A stretch of DNA of 64,000 bases from contig OZ024743.1 of the NCBI GenBank assembly GCA_964016885.1, positions 88,474,001 to 88,538,000 on the forward strand. Direction: 5' to 3'. Position 1 is the first letter of the stretch; every line of letters starts with the position of its first letter. Of this stretch, positions 2,726-56,480 are shown piece by piece. Source of the DNA: Eledone cirrhosa (taxonomy: Eukaryota). Both the position numbers and the translations under genes were made by a program. The notes below the pieces were generated by a model that saw only the letters and a list, made by a program, of their open reading frames with translations, had not been told where the DNA came from and did not search any database.

Positions 2726-3399
2726 TCCACCACATATGGTGCCTTATAAAAAAAACCTGAAGGTAGACAACAAAGAAACAGCACTATCATCTATATTTTC
2801 CCTGCTTGCATGAGTTAAATAAGTTGTCATGTTCTGAGGGACACGGAGAAGGATGGGCTCAGCCAGGTTTAAAGAAATACTGTATGCCACTATGGGACCC
2901 CTCTGTCTCTATCAAGACTTATGGGTCCATACATACATATTCTGAAGCTAGACTAATTAGGTGACCATGTTTTACACATATGTTCCATTTTTGGCTTGGT
3001 TTCTATGGCTGCATCCCCTTCTTACACCATACACTGGGAGCATATCTTCTATGACTGGACGCCTTTCCTAACACCAACCTTTTTACAGTGTGTATGAGGA
3101 ACATTCTATTGTCATTCTGAAACTAAAAGGTCCATGGGAAGCACATTGCTCTTGTTGGGGCAGTCACAATGGAAGCCTTTATTGACATGATGGCACAGGG
3201 AAGGGAAAGATGCACACATCATTCCCTTCCTTGTGCAAAAAGTGGATCAGCAGTCAGCTGACCTGTACGATGTTCCCATAACCCTAACTGTAACAATGGG
3301 TTCACTAAAAACAAAACACCAGGAAGGAAAGTTTAGTCTAGACTTCCACCATGACCATCACCACTATCTGAATGTTCAACAATGAAGATTTTAATCTAT

Positions 3400-11627: not shown

Positions 11628-11663
11628 TCTTCTGATGAAGGTTTAGCATCCGAAACGTCAAGA
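11628..11663 (+). ncRNA. Minimal type I hammerhead ribozyme motif (Penelope-like)
   Basis: tctt-CTGATGA-a-gg(tttagcat)cc-GAAA-c-GTC-aaga: stem I tctt/aaga, short stem II, palindromic ACGT stem III, GUC cleavage triplet. Confidence 0.7.
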
Positions 11664-11744
11664 CCCTCTTCCTGCTATTTCAAGCATTAACCTAATATAT
11701 TCCTTCCATATACTGTACCGATTGTGTTGTTATTTACCTTTTAA

Positions 11745-11781
<37 letters not shown>

Positions 11782-11784
<3 letters not shown>

Positions 11785-13922
11785 CTGAAAGCAAACCTGC
11801 TGTTGGCGACAGACGAAGTCTGTGGCTGGAGCAGGCCTGTAGGCAGGAGGAGAGTAACATGGTGGTGGAACAGTAAGGTGGAGGGGTCAATTAAGGCCAA
11901 AAAGCAGGCTTGGAAAGTATGGCGGGATGGGGGAAGTAGAGAAGACTATCAAGTGGCCAGGAGGGAAGCTAGGAGACAAGTGTACTTAGCAAGAAGGGAA
12001 GCTGAGGAAAGAAAGTTCAAGCATGTTCTACAACGCGATGACCAAAAACGTGAGGTGTTCAGGATTGCTAGGCAATGCGTCAAGGAAAACCGTGATATTG
12101 TCGGGGAGAAGTGTGTACTAAACGACGATGGCACACTTGCCATCACCGACGCTGATAAGAAGGTAGCTTGGAAGTGTCACTATGAAAGGCTACTAAATGA
12201 GGAGAATAAATGGGAGAAAGACAGTCTCCCCCATATCGACCCAATAGAGGGACCAGCAGTGTTAGTCGAGGGGAGTATAATAAGTAAGGCAATCAAGGAT
12301 ATGAAGACGGGTAAGGCGGCTGGGCCTTCGGAAATAGTTGCTGAGATGCTGAAGGCATCTGGCACGGTGGGACACACCATGGTCACCCGCATAGTTAACC
12401 AAGTCGTACAGAATGGGGTTGTTCCGAAGGACTGGCATAGCAGCATCATCGTTAACTGTTATAAGGGTAAAGGAGACGCCCTAGATAGGAGTAACTATAG
12501 AGGCATTAAATTAATCGACCAGGTCATGAAGGTCACGGAAAAAGTAATAGCGCAACTAATCAGAGAGAGAATTGACCTAGATGAAATGCAGTTCGGGTTT
12601 GTGTCAGGCAAAAGTACCACAGACGCTCTTTTCATAGTACGACAACTACAGGAGAAGTACCTAGCTAAAGGTAAACCCCTCTACTTAGCTTTTGTCGACT
12701 TGGAGAAAGCCTTCGACAGAGTCCCCCGCTCCATTATCTGGTGGGCTCTTAGAAAACTAGGCATTGACGAATGGCTTGTGAGGGCTATACAAGCCATGTA
12801 TAAAGAAACAGTCAGCAAGGTTAGAATTAACAACGAATATAGTGAAGAGTTTAGCGTAAAAGTTGGCGTCCATCAGGGCTCTGTTCTCAGCCCACTACTA
12901 TTTATTATTGCCCTTCAGGCTATAACAGAGGAGTTCAAGACAGGCTGCCCATGGGAACTCCTATACGCAGACGACCTGACACTCATAGCGGAATCAATGG
13001 CCGAGCTAGAGAAGAAATTCCAAACATGGAAGCACGGCCTAGAGTCAAAAGGACTTAAAATTAACCTGGCTAAGACCAAAGTACTAGTTTGTAGGAAAGA
13101 AAACAAGGCGGCGGTCCCTTCTGGGAAATGGTCGTGCTCGGTGTGTAGGAAAGGCGTAGGTAGAAACTCCATTTTATGTCCTAAATGCAAAGTATGGGTG
13201 CATAAAAGATGTAGTGGGATCACAGGTAAGCTAACTAAGAACATAGATTTTACATGTGGCCGGTGCTCTGGTGCAATAAGTAGCAGCAAGTGCCCACAAA
13301 ATACTAGCTCTTTCAATTGCGCAGAGGGTTCTATAGAAATAGTGGACAGCTATTCCGTTACCTGGGCGATAAAATCAGCAGTGGGGGAGGGTGCTCTGAA
13401 AGTACTGTAGCTAGAGTCAGAACTGGTTGGAAAAAGTTCAGAGAGCTTATACCACTATTAGCTGCTAAAGGGTTCTCCCTAAAAATGAAAGGCAGGTTGT
13501 ACGATGCCTGCATACGAACAGCAATGCTGCATGGCAGTGAGACCTGGGCATTGTGTGCAGAGGATATACGCAGACTAGAGAGGAACGAAGCTTGCATGCT
13601 CCGCTGGATGTGTAACAGTAATATACGTGAACGGCAAAGCATAAACGAACTAAGGAAAAAATTAGAGATAAGAGGGATCAGATGTTGTTTACTCGAGAGA
13701 AGGCTACGTTGGTATGGACACGTGATGCGCATGAAAGTCGATAGCTGTATAACAAAGTGCAGGGCAATAAAGATAGACGGTAGTCACGGAATAGGCAGAC
13801 CTAGAAAAACCTGGGACGAGCTGATAAACTCCGACATCACACACTTACACCTCTCCAAGACAATGTCACTGGACCGAGACCTTTGGCGGTACTCAGTAAC
13901 AGAGAAGACCCGCCTTACCTAA
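11782..13922 (+). pseudogene. RTE ORF2 reverse transcriptase with inserted PHD-type finger, broken by a 2-bp insertion at 13351-13352
   Basis: ORFs 11722-13410 and 13317-13922 join if the extra 'ta' in gacagcTAttccgttac is removed; the copy at ~24690 reads gacagcttccgttac (DSFRYLG). Confidence 0.9.
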
Positions 13923-23738: not shown

Positions 23739-24909
23739 CATCATCATCATTATCATCATCATCATCATCATTTAACGTCCATGTTCCACGCTTGCATGGG
23801 TTTGGACGAGAGTTTTCCCACTTGAGGCAAGAGTGGTTGTCTTGCTCGCCTAGGACTGTCTGGCGGGTTTTCTACAGCTGGATGCCCTTCCTAACACCAA
23901 CCACATTTACAGTGTGGAACTGGGAGGTTTTTACCGTGTTACCTACACGGCCACATTACAGCGTGGACTGTGTGTTTTTTTTGTCGTGACACCTACACGA
24001 CCTCATTTGTTTCGGGCTGGATGTTGTGACACCAACATAACTTTACATTGAAAGGGGTGGTGTGGATGGGATGGGGGTAGTGGGACGGGGGTGTATTTTG
24101 TTAGAGGTGCCTACTGACTGTAGTAGGTTTCACTTTGTACTTAGGTAAGGCGGGTCTTCTCTATTACTGTGTAGCGCCAAAGCTCTCAGTCCAGTGACAT
24201 TGTCTTGGAGAGGTGTAAGTGTGTGAGGTCGGAATTTATCAAGTCGTCCCAGGTTTTTCTGGCTCTGCCTACTCTATTTTTATTGCCCTGCACTTTTTTA
24301 TACAGCTGTCGTCTTTCATGCGCATCACGTGACCATACCAACGTAGTCTTCTCTCAAGTAAACAACATCTGATCCCTCTTATTCCTAATTTCTCCCTTAG
24401 TACGTTTATGCTTTGCCGTTCACGTATATTACTATTACACATCCAGCGGAGCATGCAAACTTCGTTTCTCTCCAGTCTGCACATATCCTCTGCGCACAAT
24501 GCCCAGGTCTCACTGCCATGTAACATTGCTGTTCGTATGCAGGCATCATACAGCCTGCCTTTCATTTTTAGAGGGAACCCTTTAGCGGCCAATAATGGTA
24601 TAAGCTCTCTGAACTTTTCCCATCCCGTTCTGACTCTAGCTACTGTACTTTCAGAGCACCCTCCCCCACTGCTGATTTTATCACCCAGGTAACGGAAGCT
24701 GTCCACTATTTCTATAGAACCATCTGTGCAATGGAATGAGTTAGTATTCTGTGGGCACTTGCTGCTACTTATTGCACCAGAGCACCGGTCACATATAAAA
24801 TCTATATTCTTAGATAGTTTACCTGTGATCCCACTACATCTTTTATGTACCCATACTTTGCATTTGGGACATAAAATGGAGTTTCTACCTACTCCTTTCC
24901 TACACACTG
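23738..24909 (-). mobile_element. 5'-truncated RTE LINE beginning at the PHD finger
   Basis: ORF 24269-24937 matches 13138-13775; (TCA)n tail at 23738-23770. Confidence 0.93.
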
Positions 24910-24940
<31 letters not shown>

Positions 24941-25449
24941 TCTATATATATATATGTGTGTGTGGGTCTGTACATTTTAATTTAACTTTTTAATTATTAT
25001 GTATTTCATTCCTTGAGCTCATTAAATTACAGGGGATTAACGCGAGTCTTTAACTCCATTTTTTCATTTGATATATATATAAGGTATATATTGAGTTAGA
25101 AACTCAAAATAGTCTCTTACAGTTAAATAGCTCAAAGAAAGAAGTTTTTCTGAGCCATGTAACATAATTGAATATAAAAGAGAGATAAACACAAATACAA
25201 ACACACATGTGTTCAAATTGTAAGGGACCAAGTTCATATATATATATTTCAATCCCATATATTTTCATTGTTTGACCCGAATTACTTGATCGTTTTTTTG
25301 GCTGTGCGGATGTTTGTTTAACCATCATCTCAGTGTGTTTGGCCTTTAACGTATGTTGTAGCTCTGATTCATCTGAATTATCGAGCGCTTGCCACACATC
25401 TTGGAAGTTGTTTTTCGTTAATTCCTAAGCCGAAATACGATTCTCGCTA

Positions 25450-25451
<2 letters not shown>

Positions 25452-25534
<83 letters not shown>
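25452..25534. repeat. (TA)n microsatellite, ~40 units
   Basis: Direct reading. Confidence 0.95.
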
Positions 25535-25539
<5 letters not shown>

Positions 25540-25680
25540 AGTTTATGTTGGTTGTATACCAACACCTCAGTTTGCAGGCTGGAGCACTCGACGAAGTGCG
25601 CAGGTTGGTTTGGTTACTCCGGAGTAGTGTAAAATAAAGTTAAATAAAAGTCAAATGATTAAAATTTAGCTTCGTTTATT

Positions 25681-25735
25681 ACTGCTATATATATTTCAGT
25701 GACAGCCATCTTTGGCTGTGACCTCTTCAGGCAGT
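25681..25735 (-). ncRNA. Type I hammerhead ribozyme motif, intact core
   Basis: Minus strand actgc-CTGAAGA-ggtcacagcca(aaga)tggctgtcact-GAAA-tatat-ATA-gcagt-AATAAA: perfect 5-bp stem I, ~10-bp stem II, palindromic stem III, AUA triplet, then a poly(A) signal. Confidence 0.82.
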
Positions 25736-25819
25736 TTGAGTTAGTATGGTATAGACAAGTACATATGTTGTTTAGGTGTATAATATTGCCTGATAAACCT
25801 CAGAACCGACTTCTTCGGG

Positions 25820-26030
25820 ACATGCAGACACCTTAGAGCCGGGACCTTTCTCAAGACATATGGACAGTAGCAACACAAGAAAATGTGAACTCTCCTCAAG
25901 CTATAGGGACTTCTACAGAACATGAAAACACCTCTCGGCCAGACTTCCCTCAAGCTATATGGGCAGTAACAACACCCTAGGTTGTGAATTCCCCTCAAGC
26001 CATAGGGAACAACCCAGGCTGAGCAGACAC
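25820..26030. repeat. Degenerate ~99-bp dimeric repeat next to the hammerhead
   Basis: ctcaag(c/a).ata.gg recurs at ~25850, 25896, 25949 and 25994 with alternating spacers. Confidence 0.6.
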
Positions 26031-26977
26031 CATGATAGCCTAGAGATAGAATCGGACACAGCCATTATAATTTGGCCAACATCTATATAACACAAACACT
26101 TTTTAATTTACTAGATTTCTGATTTTCAAGTTCCAATCTTAAATCTTGATTTCTCTTTATTATGGGTTTAGATGGGTTGTGACATACTGTGGCTGGACAG
26201 GTCTGGTGATTGTGCCTTACTCATACACACCACTTTTGGCTTGGTTTTTAGGGCTGGATGCCTTTTCTAATGCCAACCATTTTATAGTGTGTATTTGGAG
26301 CATTTTATCATGATTTTGGCACTACCACTTTACAGGGTGAACTAAGTGTTTTTTGTCATGATACCAGCACCACCAACTTAGAAGGTAGACTGCGAGCTTT
26401 TTATCATGGCAACTACACTACCACTTTACAGTGCAGACTCAGTACTTTACATCTCGACCCCTGTAAGGATGAAAGGCAAAGCTAACCTTGGCAAGATTTG
26501 TAACTATATCTCGCTTCTGATGAGCATATCAGGCAAAAGACCAAATATTTCTGAAGTACTGAGAAAGAAAAAGAACACTTTCAGATATGTATAGATCAAA
26601 ATAATTTATAAAAATCAACAGATATAATGTATTGTAATTTTTTTTTTACTTTTGTTATTTGATTATTAAAATATCTGTAAATATGAGGCATATTTTTTAA
26701 AGATAATAAATTAAAGCAATGGGAATAATATTTTGTCTGGATATTGCTTTGAGTTCTTCCAATTAAGAAGAGTAAAATACAATTTATTAAAATCTTAGTG
26801 TGATAGACGAAATGTTTGATTAGAAATACATTAGGCAACAATGTATTTCATTTATCTACATATTATTTGAACTCTTGTATTTCGATCTAATAATTATGCA
26901 CTTGAGATAAATTAAGTTTGCTTTTAAATAACATATGGTGCAGATGTCAACACTTTAGTATAATTCTATTCACATTG

Positions 26978-27845
26978 GACCGAATTAGCAGCGGAGGTGG
27001 GTGTTCAGAAAGTATAATAACTAGGGTAAGAACGGGATGGAAGAAGTTCAGGGAACTACTGCCACTGCTAGCTGCAAAAGGCTTCTCTCTCAAAATGAAA
27101 GGCAGACTGTATGATGTGTGTATACGAACAGCAATGTTACATGGTAGTGAGACCTGGGCGCTGGAGGTGGAAGACTTACGTAGATTAGAAAGAAACGAAG
27201 CCTGCATGCTCCGATGGATGTGTAATAGTAATATACGAGAACGGCAAAACATAAATGAATTGAGAGAGAGACTGAGCATAAGAGGAATCAAATGCTCTGT
27301 GCAGGAGAGGCGGTTGCGTTGGTATGGACATGTGATGCGTATGAAGGATGACAGCTGCATAAAAAGGTGCAGAGCACTAGAAGTCAATGGAAACCGTGGA
27401 GTGGGGAGACCCAAGAAGACCTGGGATGAGGTGATAAAAGCCGACCTTACCCAATTACACCTCTCAAAGGCGATGACACACAACCGTGACCTCTGGCGTC
27501 ACGCAGTAATATAGAGTACCCGACCTCCCATGGGTACAAGCTGAAGCATATAGACAATATGCCCCCACACCCTCCCACTGCAAAGTGGTCGTGGAGGTGC
27601 ACGGCAAAAATAGCACCCAGCCCACACTGTAGAGTGGACGTGTAGGCGCCACGGAAAAAAGCACCCAGCACTCACTGTAAATGAGGTTGGTGTTAGGAAG
27701 GGCATCCAGCTGTAGAAATCAAGCCAAAATCAGTTCCTGTATGAGCAAGGCATGGTCAGACACTGACCACAACAGGACAACCCGTCTAACCGATGCTAGC
27801 ATGGAAGAACGGACGTAAAACGGTGATGATGATGATGATGATGAT
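26978..27845 (+). mobile_element. 5'-truncated RTE LINE, subfamily 2, open frame to the stop
   Basis: ORF 26918-27514 from DRISSGGG onward; full 3' UTR and (ATG)n tail. Confidence 0.93.
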
Positions 27846-35965: not shown

Positions 35966-36018
35966 ATTTTGTCTAATGAGGACGTACTGTTGTACATCCG
36001 AAATATGAATAATAAAAT
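35966..36018 (+). ncRNA. Degenerate type I hammerhead motif
   Basis: attttgt-CTAATGA-ggacgtac(tgtt)gtacatcc-GAAA-tatgaata-ataaaat: stems I and II present; G5 is mutated to A. Confidence 0.55.
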
Positions 36019-36052: not shown

Positions 36053-36098
<46 letters not shown>

Positions 36099-40387: not shown

Positions 40388-40975
40388 CAGTGTTATTGTC
40401 CAGGTACCTCTATAACAGTACTGTGGTAGGCAGTGTTTTATTGTCCAGATACCTCTATAACTGTACTGTGGTAGGCAGTGTTATTGTCCAGATACCTCTA
40501 TAACTGTACTGTGGTAGGCAGTGTTATTGTCCAGATACCTCTATAACTGTACTGTGGTAGGCAGTGTTTTATTGTCCAGATACCTCTATAACTGTACTGT
40601 GGTAGGCAGTGTTATTGTCCAGATACCTCTATAACTGTACTGTGGTAGGCAGTGTTATTGTCCAGATACCTCTATAACTGTACTGTGGTAGGCAGTGTTA
40701 TTGTCCAGATACCTCTATAACTGTACTGTGGTAGGCAGTGTTATTGTCCAGATACCTCTATAACTCTACTGTGGTAGGCAGTGTTATTGTCCAGATACCT
40801 CTATAACTGTACTGTGGTAGGCAGTGTTTTATTGTCCAGATACCTCTATAACAGTACTGTGGTAGGCAGTGTTTTATTGTCCAGATACCTCTATAACTGT
40901 ACTGTGGTAGGCAGTGTTATTGTCCAGGTACCTCTATAACTGTACTGTGGTAGGCAGTGTTATTGTCCAGGTACC
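40388..40975. repeat. 43/45-bp minisatellite, ~13.5 units
   Basis: cagtgtt(tt)attgtccagatacctctataactgtactgtggtagg in near-perfect tandem. Confidence 0.97.
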
Positions 40976-44951: not shown

Positions 44952-46012
44952 CGTTTAACGTCCATTTTCCACGCTAGCATGGGTTAGACCATGTCTTGCT
45001 CATACAGGACTATCTGGCAGGTTTTTTACGGCTGGATGCCCTTCCTAACACCAACCACATTTACAGTGTGGAACTGGGAACTTTTTACTGTGTTACCTAC
45101 ACGGCCACATTACAGCGTGGACTGTGTGTTTTTTGTCGTGACACACCTATACGAGCTCGATCTCATTTTCTCGTGCTGTTGGTGGGAGTGGGAGGATAGG
45201 GTAGGGGTAGTGGATTGGGGTGTATATTTGGTTAAGAGGTGCCTACTGACTGTAGGTTTCACTTTGTACATAAGCAAGGCAGCTCTTATGTATTACTGCG
45301 TAGCGCCAAAGATCTCGGTCCAGAGACATTGTCTTAGAGAGATGTAAGTGTGTGAGGTCGGAATTTATCAGATCATCCCAGGTTTTTCTGGGTCTACCTA
45401 CTCCGTAACTACCATCAATTTTGATCGCCCTGCATTTTTTTATGCAGCTGTCTTTCATGCGCATCACGTGACCATACCAATGTAGTCTTCTCTTAAGTAA
45501 ACAGCATCTGATCCCTCTTATTCCTAATTTCACACTTAGTTCATTTATACATGCATGCTTCGTTCTTTTCCAGTCTGCGCAGGTCCTCTGCACGCAATGC
45601 CCATGTCGCACTGCCATGTAGCAGTGCTGTTCGTATACAGGCATCATACAATCTGCCTTTCACTGTTAGAGAGAAACCTTTTGTGGCCAACAGCGGTATA
45701 AGCTCTCTGAACTTTTTCCATCCCGTTCTGACTCTGGCTACTGTACTTTCAGAACACCACCACTGCTGATTTCGTCACCCAGGTAACGGAAAGTGTCTAC
45801 TATTTCTATAGAACCATCTGGGCAATAGAAGGAGCTAGTATCCTTTGGACACTTGCTACTTATTGCACCTGAGAATTGGCCACATATAAAGTCTACGTTC
45901 TTAGATAGTTGACTCGTGATCCCACTATATCTTTTATGTACCCATACTTTGCATTTGGGACATAAAATGGAATTTCTGCCTACTCCTTTCCTACACACTG
46001 AGCATGGCCATT
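44952..46012 (-). mobile_element. 5'-truncated RTE LINE beginning at the PHD finger
   Basis: KWPCSVCRKGVGRNSILCPKCKVWVHKR...; frameshifted; 3' UTR present. Confidence 0.92.
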
Positions 46013-46661: not shown

Positions 46662-48370
46662 TTCAGGTGTGGCTATGATTTAGCATAGTTCAGGTGTGGC
46701 TGTAATTTATCGTAGTTCAGGTGTGACTGTAATTTAACATAATTAAGGTGTGGCTATGATTTAGCATAGTTTAGGTGTGGCTATGATTTAGTATAGTTCA
46801 GGTGTGGCTGAAATTTAGCATAGTTCAGGTGTGGCTGTAATTTAACATAATTAAGGTGTGGCTATGATTTAGCATAGTTCAGGTATGGCTATATGATTTA
46901 GCATAGTTCAGGTGTGGCTGTAATTTAACATAATTAAGGTGTGGCTATGATTTAGTATAGTTCAGGTGTGGCTGTAATTTAACCTAGTTCAGGTGTGGCT
47001 GTAATTTAACCTAGTTCAGGTGTGGCTGTAATTTAACCTAGTTCAGGTGTGGCTATGATTTAGCATAGTTCAGGTGTGGCTGTAATTTAACCTAGTTCAG
47101 GTGTGGCTGTAATTTAACCTAGTTCAGGTGTGGCTATGATTTAGCATAGTTCAGGTGTGGCTGTAATTTAACCTAGTTCAGGTGTGGCTATGATTTAGCA
47201 TAGTTCAGGTGTGGCTATGATTTAGCATAGTTCAGGTGTGGCTGTAATTTAACATAGTTCAGGTGTGGCTGTAATTTAGCATAGTTTAGGTGTGGCTGTA
47301 ATTTAACCTAGTTCAGGTGTGGCTATGATTTAGCATAGTTCAGGTGTGGCTGTAATTTAACCTAGTTCAGGTGTGGCTATGATTTAGCATAGTTCAGGTG
47401 TGGCTGTAATTTAACCTAGTTCAGGTGTGGCTATGATTTAGCATAGTTCAGGTGTGGCTGTAATTTAACATAATTCAGGTGTGGCTATGATTTAGCATAG
47501 TTTAGGTGTGGCTGTAATTTAACCTAGTTCAGGTGGCTATGATTTAGCATAGTTCAGGTGTGGCTGTAATTTAACATAATTCAGGTGTGGCTGTAATTTA
47601 ACATAATTCAGGTGTGGCTGTAATTTAACAATTAAGGTGTGGCTATGATTTAGCATAGTTCAGGTGTGGCTGTAATTTAACATAATTAAGGTGTGGCTAT
47701 GATTTAGCATAGTTCAGGTGTGGCTGTAATTTAGCATAGTTCAGGTATGGCTATGATTTAGCATAGTTCAGGTATGGCTATGATTTAGCATAGTTCAGGT
47801 GTGGCTGTAATTTAGCATAGTTCAGGTGTGGCTGTAATTTAGCATAGTTCAGGTGTGGCTGTAATTTAGCATAGTTCAGGTATGGCTATGATTTAGCATA
47901 GTTCAGGTGTGGCTGTAATTTAACATAATTAAGGTGTGGCTATGATTTAGCATAGTTCAGGTATGGCTGTAATTTAACCTAGTTCAGGTATGGCTGTAAT
48001 TTAACCTAGTTCAGGTGTGGCTGTAATTTAATCTAGTTCAGGTGTGGCTATAATTTAACATAGTTCGGGTGTACTGTAATTTAGCGTAGTTCTGGTGTGA
48101 CAGATATAATAGTTCAGATGTGACTGTCATGAAACATACTTCATGAGTGGCTGTGATGTGACATAGTTCAAGTGTGGCTGATGTAACATAGTTTAGGTGT
48201 GTCTGTGATGTAATACAATTCAGGTGTAACACAATTGAGATGTCTGTGATATAACATATCAGTTGTGACCGATGTAACATAGTTCAAGTGTGACTGATGT
48301 AACATAGTTCAAGTGTGACTGATGTAACACAGTTCAACTGTGACTGTGATGTAACAGTTCAGGTGTGACT
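46662..48370. repeat. 27-bp minisatellite, ~50 conserved units decaying toward 48370
   Basis: ttcaggtgtggct followed by atgatttagcatag or gtaatttaac(c/a)ta(g/a). Confidence 0.97.
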
Positions 48371-55954: not shown

Positions 55955-56480
55955 ATTTACTGTCATAACAAAAAGCATCCAGTCCACTCTGTAAATTAGT
56001 CATGCTGTTGCCATGACAGTAAGCACCCAGTCCACCCTGTAAGGTGGTTGTACTGGTGCCACGACGAAAAGCATCCAGTTCACCCTATAAGGTAGTTGTG
56101 CTGGTGTCAAGACAAAAAGCATACAGTTCTCCCTGTAAGGTGGTCGTGTGGTGTCATGACAAAAAGCATCCAGTCCACTCTCTGATATGGTCGTGATAGT
56201 GTCACAACAAAAAGACTCAGTCCACCCTGTAAGGTGGTTGTGCTGGTGCCTCAACAAAACGTACCAAGTTGACTCTTTAAGGTCGTAGTGCTGGTGCCAT
56301 AACAAAAAGCACCCAGTACATGCTGTAAAGTGATTGGCGTTAGGAAAGGCATGCAGCTGTAGGAAACCAAGCCAAGCATAGAACATATGAGTAATACATA
56401 GTCACCTAACCTGTCTGACCTCATAACATGACTCATCTAATCCTTGCAAGCATAGAAAATAGTTACAGTGATGATAATGA
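55955..56480 (+). repeat. Tandemly expanded ~44-bp unit of the RTE 3' UTR followed by the normal LINE terminus
   Basis: aaaagcatccagtccaccctgtaaggtggt.gtgctggtg.ca repeated about 8 times, then ttggcgttaggaaaggcatgcagctgtag ... (ATG)n. Confidence 0.8.

Follow-up and report, generated by a model that had tools for sequence, protein, structure and literature searches.

A stretch of 64,000 nucleotides from Eledone cirrhosa (the window; GenBank assembly GCA_964016885.1, contig OZ024743.1, positions 88,474,001 to 88,538,000 of the forward strand) contains what is very probably a damaged head-to-head insertion of a Hydra-clade Penelope-like element in a TA microsatellite. On its minus strand lies a terminal arm with a hammerhead motif, which meets, at 25788, a plus-strand piece made up of the end of the element's open reading frame (ORF) and 3′ UTR sequence. 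The other hammerhead arm probably disappeared after insertion. The anatomy of the locus, and the copy number, the two fixed 3′ ends and the subfamily structure of its family, were observed directly. The features are given below, with c denoting the predicted cut site (c+56 lies 56 nt past it) and L043 a natural copy of the element that served as reference.

25453-25535 (no strand): (TA)n microsatellite, 41.5 copies by TRF, the typical insertion target of the family
25527-25788 (minus): inverted pLTR arm in its long form, extending 103 nt upstream and 159 nt downstream of the cut site and matching positions 1-262 of L043
25527-25629 (minus): optional "tail" of 103 nt, bounded by the fixed 3′ ends c+56 and c+159; where copies are in tandem, it forms the 5′ UTR of the following ORF
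25675-25680 (minus): AATAAA, directly after stem I and upstream of both 3′ ends of the family
25681-25735 (minus): type I hammerhead with a 5-bp stem I, an intact core, a long stem II and an 8-nt palindromic stem III
25788 (no strand): head-to-head inversion junction, with one shared G
25790-25870 (plus): end of the RT-GIY-YIG ORF, 26 final codons and a TAG stop, whose translation matches the C-terminus of the family ORFs
25808-26008 (plus): 99-bp dimer, with 45- and 54-nt subunits starting CTCAAG at 25850, 25895, 25949 and 25994
25871-26162 (plus): first 292 nt of the element 3′ UTR, which breaks off at 26162, about 860 nt ahead of the expected start of its own hammerhead arm

We read the locus as two pieces joined head to head at 25788 because positions 1-262 of L043 match it in inverted orientation and positions 2906-3279 match it forward. 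The forward arm matched this part of the reference only, and the remainder is missing from the window. The final few bases of the inverted arm blend into the TA tract. This arm was 98.8% identical to its nearest copies, with a median of 97.3% over 119 matches. The window copy has private bases at 25572 and 25740. At about 97-98% identity to other copies, the arms mark the insertion as young. The exact junction at 25788 had one match in the genome. When the genome (3.0 Gb) was searched with positions 25536-26100, 1,188 candidates were returned, of which 40 were scored; apart from the window itself, 39 of 40 matches ended at or near 25788. Contigs of one study (three sets, of a kind not on record) showed loose ends at 25788 and 26162, where they continued as family sequence; among the contigs listed from these sets, none covered the entire stretch including the junction. 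The ORF end at 25790-25870 includes the conserved N and the CxH motif. The two halves of the 99-bp dimer, each about 99 bp long, are 74% identical to each other (E 7e-11 when compared within the window). The dimer crosses the ORF stop codon into the 3′ UTR and is a fixed feature of the family. The initial annotation had placed this repeat in one unit with the hammerhead. Its two copies are indeed present, but on the hammerhead strand they are antisense ORF end and 3′ UTR.

On the minus strand, stem I is formed by ACUGC (25735-25731) and GCAGU (25685-25681), and the core CUGAAGA occupies 25730-25724. Stem II comprises 26 nt (25723-25698) with ten positions, including a G·U pair at 10.1-11.1 and a C·C mismatch at position 4 (25720/25701). 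It is followed by GAAA (25697-25694), by the palindrome AUAUAUAU (25694-25687) and by A17 at 25686, which puts the predicted cut between 25686 and 25685, where it had been annotated. The type I signatures CUGANGA, GAAA and UH are represented by CUGAAGA, GAAA and UA within 25730-25686. In the lowest-energy fold of a 71-mer (z = -2.3 against 300 shuffles), stems I and II paired beside the core and stem II was closed by the G·U; the fold was weaker with longer context. In a relaxed scan across the window, 25681-25735 was the sole motif having an intact core and all stems. Rfam gave no hammerhead family at the gathering score in the entire window, and none at E up to 10 in 24500-27500. The motif is real and not a product of chance: the 42-nt hammerhead core had 4,051 exact matches in the genome, against 0 for the reversed control. 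The minus-strand hammerhead, the AATAAA directly after stem I, the TA microsatellite and the link to Penelope-like elements all held as initially annotated. The description of this hammerhead as the best preserved is true within the window only and not genome-wide, where at least 4,051 cores are identical.

A 32-place pattern that bars T at 11.1 had 1,654 matches, a count that is not strictly comparable with the 4,051 because core and pattern differ in length. All 100 of the matches listed had C at this place, that is, the canonical G10.1-C11.1 pair. Ten loci of this G-C subfamily were 83-95% alike to L043 and had other differences in common. There are two large subfamilies, with G-C in about 1,650 older copies and G·U in at least 4,051 younger copies, and the window copy belongs to the latter. 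CpG decay was considered as the origin of U11.1 and ruled out, for the mirror G-to-A change was present in only 77 copies and U11.1 co-occurs with other subfamily differences. Therefore, U11.1 is a subfamily trait and not decay after insertion.

Folding predictions, which leave out tertiary contacts and proteins, placed the active fold of the monomer about 4 kcal/mol above an open form (-12.6 vs -16.7). Stem III of the monomer was not stable, having 2 bp (A-U and U-A) with a pair probability of 0.08-0.25. The palindrome permits a dimer with an 8-bp stem III, and the need for a dimer test, already raised in the initial annotation, is borne out. Among the dimers predicted for the window sequence, a misfold had the lowest energy (-43.8), below that of the active form (-37.8). 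In the G-C subfamily, by contrast, the active dimer itself came out lowest (-44.6). The probability of stem I dropped to 0.05 in a 295-nt context. Passages of the published work report no monomer cleavage and low dimer cleavage for PLE hammerheads (PMC4209133) and, for the element PAc, two internal RT starts, protein-assisted cleavage and insertion for which cleavage is unneeded (PMC11167929). We predict that the hammerhead is inactive or very slow as a monomer and would cut only as a dimer through AUAUAUAU, probably with the help of protein. The G·U at 10.1-11.1 need not be fatal because it is present in published Hydra hammerheads (File S2 of PMC8557442).

We also looked at the genomic copies for a footprint of cleavage. 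Foreign bases just before the cut site were seen in 14 matches, against 2 at c+9, and 12 of the 14 were true junctions exactly at the cut site, at 9 loci. Another 9 copies join a TA tract at the cut site. A start profile made by eye gave about 12-13 starts at c+1 and 9 at c-1 (90 rows), and 8-11 each at c+6, c+7 and c+8 among 100 of 133 matches listed. A scripted count (30+30 loci) gave 2 at +1, 4 at -1, 3 at +7 and 4 at +8, with 7 and 12 indel variants dropped. Together, starts at the cut site numbered about 20 among more than 5,700 copies (<1%, partly counted by eye), without a clear excess over nearby positions. The apparent enrichment at the cut site vanished because the wider profile showed similar counts nearby. 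Cleavage is predicted not to fix the ends of genomic copies. In L151/L152, L157, L158/L159 and L161/L162, inverted pairs were found with both arms starting at or within a base of the cut site. Such pairs are suggestive of cleaved templates, and microhomology explains them equally.

Could the window copy itself be transcribed on the minus strand and cleave in vivo, alone or in trans with sister RNAs? Its core and stems I and II are intact, its palindrome can pair with any sister transcript, the G·U is shared with published Hydra hammerheads and with two of 11 related clusters (see below), and the 12 exact junctions at the cut site point the same way. However, its strand has no partner arm and the family sequence upstream of c-103 is gone, its predicted dimer is misfolded while that of the G-C subfamily is active, its stem I scarcely forms in longer context, and positions c+6 to c+8 have roughly as many junctions as the cut site. 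We consider such cleavage very unlikely. Without a partner on its own strand, the window copy is most likely an inert passenger. It had been ranked as the top candidate for self-cleavage, a rank that no longer seems warranted for one of at least 4,051 identical cores, in a subfamily with a weaker predicted fold and with the partner arm gone. A copy of the G-C subfamily or a full tandem copy would be the better substrate for a cleavage test.

The three natural copies L031, L034 and L043 have the order pLTR-ORF(-pLTR). In L031 and L043, the ORF and its 3′ UTR are bracketed by two hammerhead arms, and the cut sites of L043 are 4,135 nt apart. The ATG of the ORF in full-length copies is at c+209, i.e. 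209 nt past the first cut site. In 28 of 29 other loci, a hammerhead segment followed downstream on the same strand as the ORF, usually after some 860 nt. The ORF contains RT followed by a C-terminal GIY-YIG endonuclease (L031 4332-6431, 700 aa open, with YRDD and VYG...YIG). Its N-terminal part sits in another frame in the copies examined, and no unbroken full ORF was present among 20 long loci. At E <= 1e-10 there were 678 relatives, nearly all of them unnamed. Three pieces of the ORF matched no Pfam family at E <= 0.1. Reading frame by frame, we found the RWK and DKT motifs in L031 and L043. The natural copies have a CxCx5C linker (CNCRNPESC), a CxxC (CKLC) and a CxH (CRH), which flank the catalytic E and N. 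The CCHH pattern is absent from them; a single Cys lies between the equivalents of GIY and YIG. As in EN+ Penelope-like elements, the pLTRs occur as partial tandems, the inverted arms are truncated and the tail is present on one side only. Of the 89 sampled family ends, 88 were followed by a TA or CT microsatellite. The Hydra clade is defined by RWK, DKT, CxCx5C, CxxC, CxH, the lack of CCHH and a (TA)n target (Craig et al. 2021, PMC8557442, section 11). Judged by these motifs, we assign the element to the Hydra clade of Penelope-like retrotransposons, where it appears as a new family of a known clade. Other Hydra-like families adjoin copies of the element, at L037 6813-7850 (minus), L050 5323-6726 (minus), L041 and L046.

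The ends of insertions were surveyed at 60 loci, taken in order of position from the exact 42-nt core matches and comprising 95 arms. The 3′ ends fell at c+50 to c+62 in 48 arms and at c+145 to c+170 in 41; two arms ran into the ORF and four ended elsewhere or were unassigned. At the other side, 36 of the 95 5′ boundaries were at c-160 to c-175, at a 9-bp hairpin. Every head-to-head pair in these loci combined one short and one long end (30/30, binomial p 2e-9 against one half). Score-ranked loci followed the same rule in 13 of 15 cases, the exceptions being L009 and L076. Per 165 nt, arms differed by a mean of 2.1 mismatches within a pair vs 4.4 between loci (23 pairs). The window arm has the long form, so we infer that the lost arm would have been a short one. 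The AATAAA lies before both 3′ ends and therefore cannot end the copied RNA; with poly(A) at 0 of 89 ends, this role was ruled out. It may be used in other transcripts. The tail of the initial annotation proved to be an optional 103-nt extension that runs, in full-length copies, into the ORF start 209 nt past the cut site.

Very short two-arm insertions, with about 330 nt between the cut sites, were observed at ten loci (L053, L059, L065, L074, L099, L102, L116, L126, L146 and L147). Their junctions sit at a single 9-bp hairpin located 167-169 nt upstream of the cut site, a junction hot spot. A 12-nt palindrome in the 5′ UTR of L043 starts 3 nt past the short end (window 25627-25616); it did not fold in L031, which carries a change in it. 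Right past the long end, the 5′ UTR has the start of a hairpin unlike this palindrome.

Inverted arms and a tail on one side have been described for PLEs, and in the Anolis element PAc the tail is explained by two internal starts of reverse transcription. A scheme that accommodates the present ends can be drawn from the family and from published work on another clade. The endonuclease of the element would cut the TA tract. Reverse transcription would have two internal starts on the RNA, c+56 and c+159, and the two products would join back to back. One arm would carry the 103-nt tail and the other would not because products of the two starts are joined in this way.

The initial annotation had instead proposed a complete non-autonomous, non-coding unit, SINE-like or retrozyme-like, in which the 99-bp dimer, hammerhead, polyadenylation signal and tail were moved together by Penelope proteins. 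The parts do stand in that order, and short hammerhead-only pairs of the family are abundant, but the reading is extremely unlikely given pieces that meet at an inversion junction unique in the genome and at or near which 39 of 40 other scored matches stop, a dimer that is antisense ORF and UTR at a locus carrying an ORF end, and ends devoid of poly(A). No short tandem (retrozyme-like) array was seen in 60 loci sampled out of thousands, and same-strand neighbours occurred in 5 of the 60 only, three about 4.1-4.2 kb apart and two about 500 nt apart, none forming an array. A similar junction, shifted by about 10 nt, is present at one further locus, L002. However, it retains its forward hammerhead arm and is therefore an ordinary inverted insertion.

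With the locus read as a damaged head-to-head insertion, its hammerhead can be compared with those of related families. We scanned the fetched loci and the window with a descriptor that placed no constraint on position 4 of stem II or on the symmetry of stem III. The 292 hits formed 11 clusters at 85%, which are not independent events because the clusters are related and the hits include repeats from overlapping loci. All 11 clusters had a mismatch at stem II position 4, C·C in eight of them, and all 11 had a self-complementary 8-nt stem III, the sequences of which differ; other stem II pairs swap. The G·U at 10.1-11.1 occurred in two clusters. Decay as the source of the C·C was ruled out, since the position-4 mismatch is kept in all 11. 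This pattern supports a dimeric ribozyme that would be functional at the level of the lineage. Lunse et al. reportedly dealt with dimers of PLE hammerheads and may describe the stem II mismatch. The window has a second hammerhead, of another family, on the plus strand at 35967-36012, with a broken core (CUAAUGA) and located before a (TA)n at 36055. Its stem II is likewise mismatched at position 4.

The surroundings of the locus are rich in repeats. On the far side of the TA tract, a piece of a different repeat family occupies 25256-25452 (86% to L225, itself flanked by TA tracts) and is probably a second insertion in the same microsatellite. Related to this piece is an array of tandem units of about 615 bp at L133 2121-4825, which starts at a TA tract and in which no standard hammerhead was detected. 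Fragments of LINE reverse transcriptase, which we take to be RTE-like, lie at window 11647-13922, 24269-24976, 26906-27514 and 45243-45659. Minisatellites were found at 40388-40975 (43 bp), 46662-48227 (27 bp) and 55961-56336 (48 bp), and the 48-50-bp repeat family is also found next to the element, past 26162. By eye, no host gene was recognised among the 37 open frames of at least 110 aa in the window, a reading that short exons would escape, and several of these frames resemble LINE fragments.

Among known systems, the Hydra clade (e.g. Hydra-1_Obim; Craig et al. 2021, PMC8557442) shares with the element the motif set, the (TA)n target, a type I hammerhead near the 3′ end, an inverted 5′-truncated arm and a one-sided tail. 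However, the unit of the present element is 4.1 kb, whereas those in the cited passages are generally <3 kb (a tendency and not a criterion), and its tail is 103 nt, against 30-40 bp for PLE tails there. The hammerhead sequence also differs: the 3′ strand of stem II had 0 matches in the supplement, in which Hydra-1_Obim, the one cephalopod family listed (2,507 bp), has a different hammerhead. The main-text passages of that paper make no mention of a long stem II with a position-4 mismatch.

Metazoan PLE hammerheads with a minimal or small palindromic helix III, as described in passages of Cervera and de la Pena (2014, PMC4209133), are similar in being type I with a 5-bp stem I, a long stem II and a palindromic stem III that favours dimers. 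They are mostly single dispersed motifs from truncated PLEs, and opposite-strand pairs 100-700 bp apart occur as well. In contrast to them, the window fold has no extra base between A9 and 10.1. G10.1-C11.1 is called "highly conserved" there, whereas the window copy has G·U and an internal C·C mismatch. The Poseidon element PAc of Anolis, in the passages of Frangieh et al. (2024, PMC11167929), likewise ends at two fixed 3′ positions, which delimit a tail past the hammerhead, has an AT-rich target and shows no sign of cleavage defining the ends. However, it belongs to another clade, its ORF starts inside the hammerhead and not 209 nt past the cut site, and its tail is shorter. Animal non-LTR retrozymes (passages of bioRxiv 10.64898/2026.07.22.740005; see also PMC7229834) have a type I hammerhead related to those of PLE pLTRs, but every unit of these tandem repeats contains a hammerhead, whereas the window locus has a single motif and an ORF remnant.

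The properties of the family raise a speculative reading, which we regard as unlikely: the hammerhead may be mainly an RNA pairing module, in which the palindromic stem III and the unpaired position-4 base would hold two template RNAs together while both DNA ends are primed. If this were true, each end would be primed at its own fixed site, giving the strict insertions of one short and one long arm. Cutting would then be dispensable, and therefore the G·U subfamily with the weaker ribozyme could have become more numerous. The locus itself matters little, and the cheap in vitro tests now at hand are enabled by properties of the family and not by the window copy. With two subfamilies that differ at one core-adjacent pair, with ends fixed to the base and with a stem II mismatch that has been kept, the family offers a natural comparison for the question of what role the hammerhead plays in Penelope elements.
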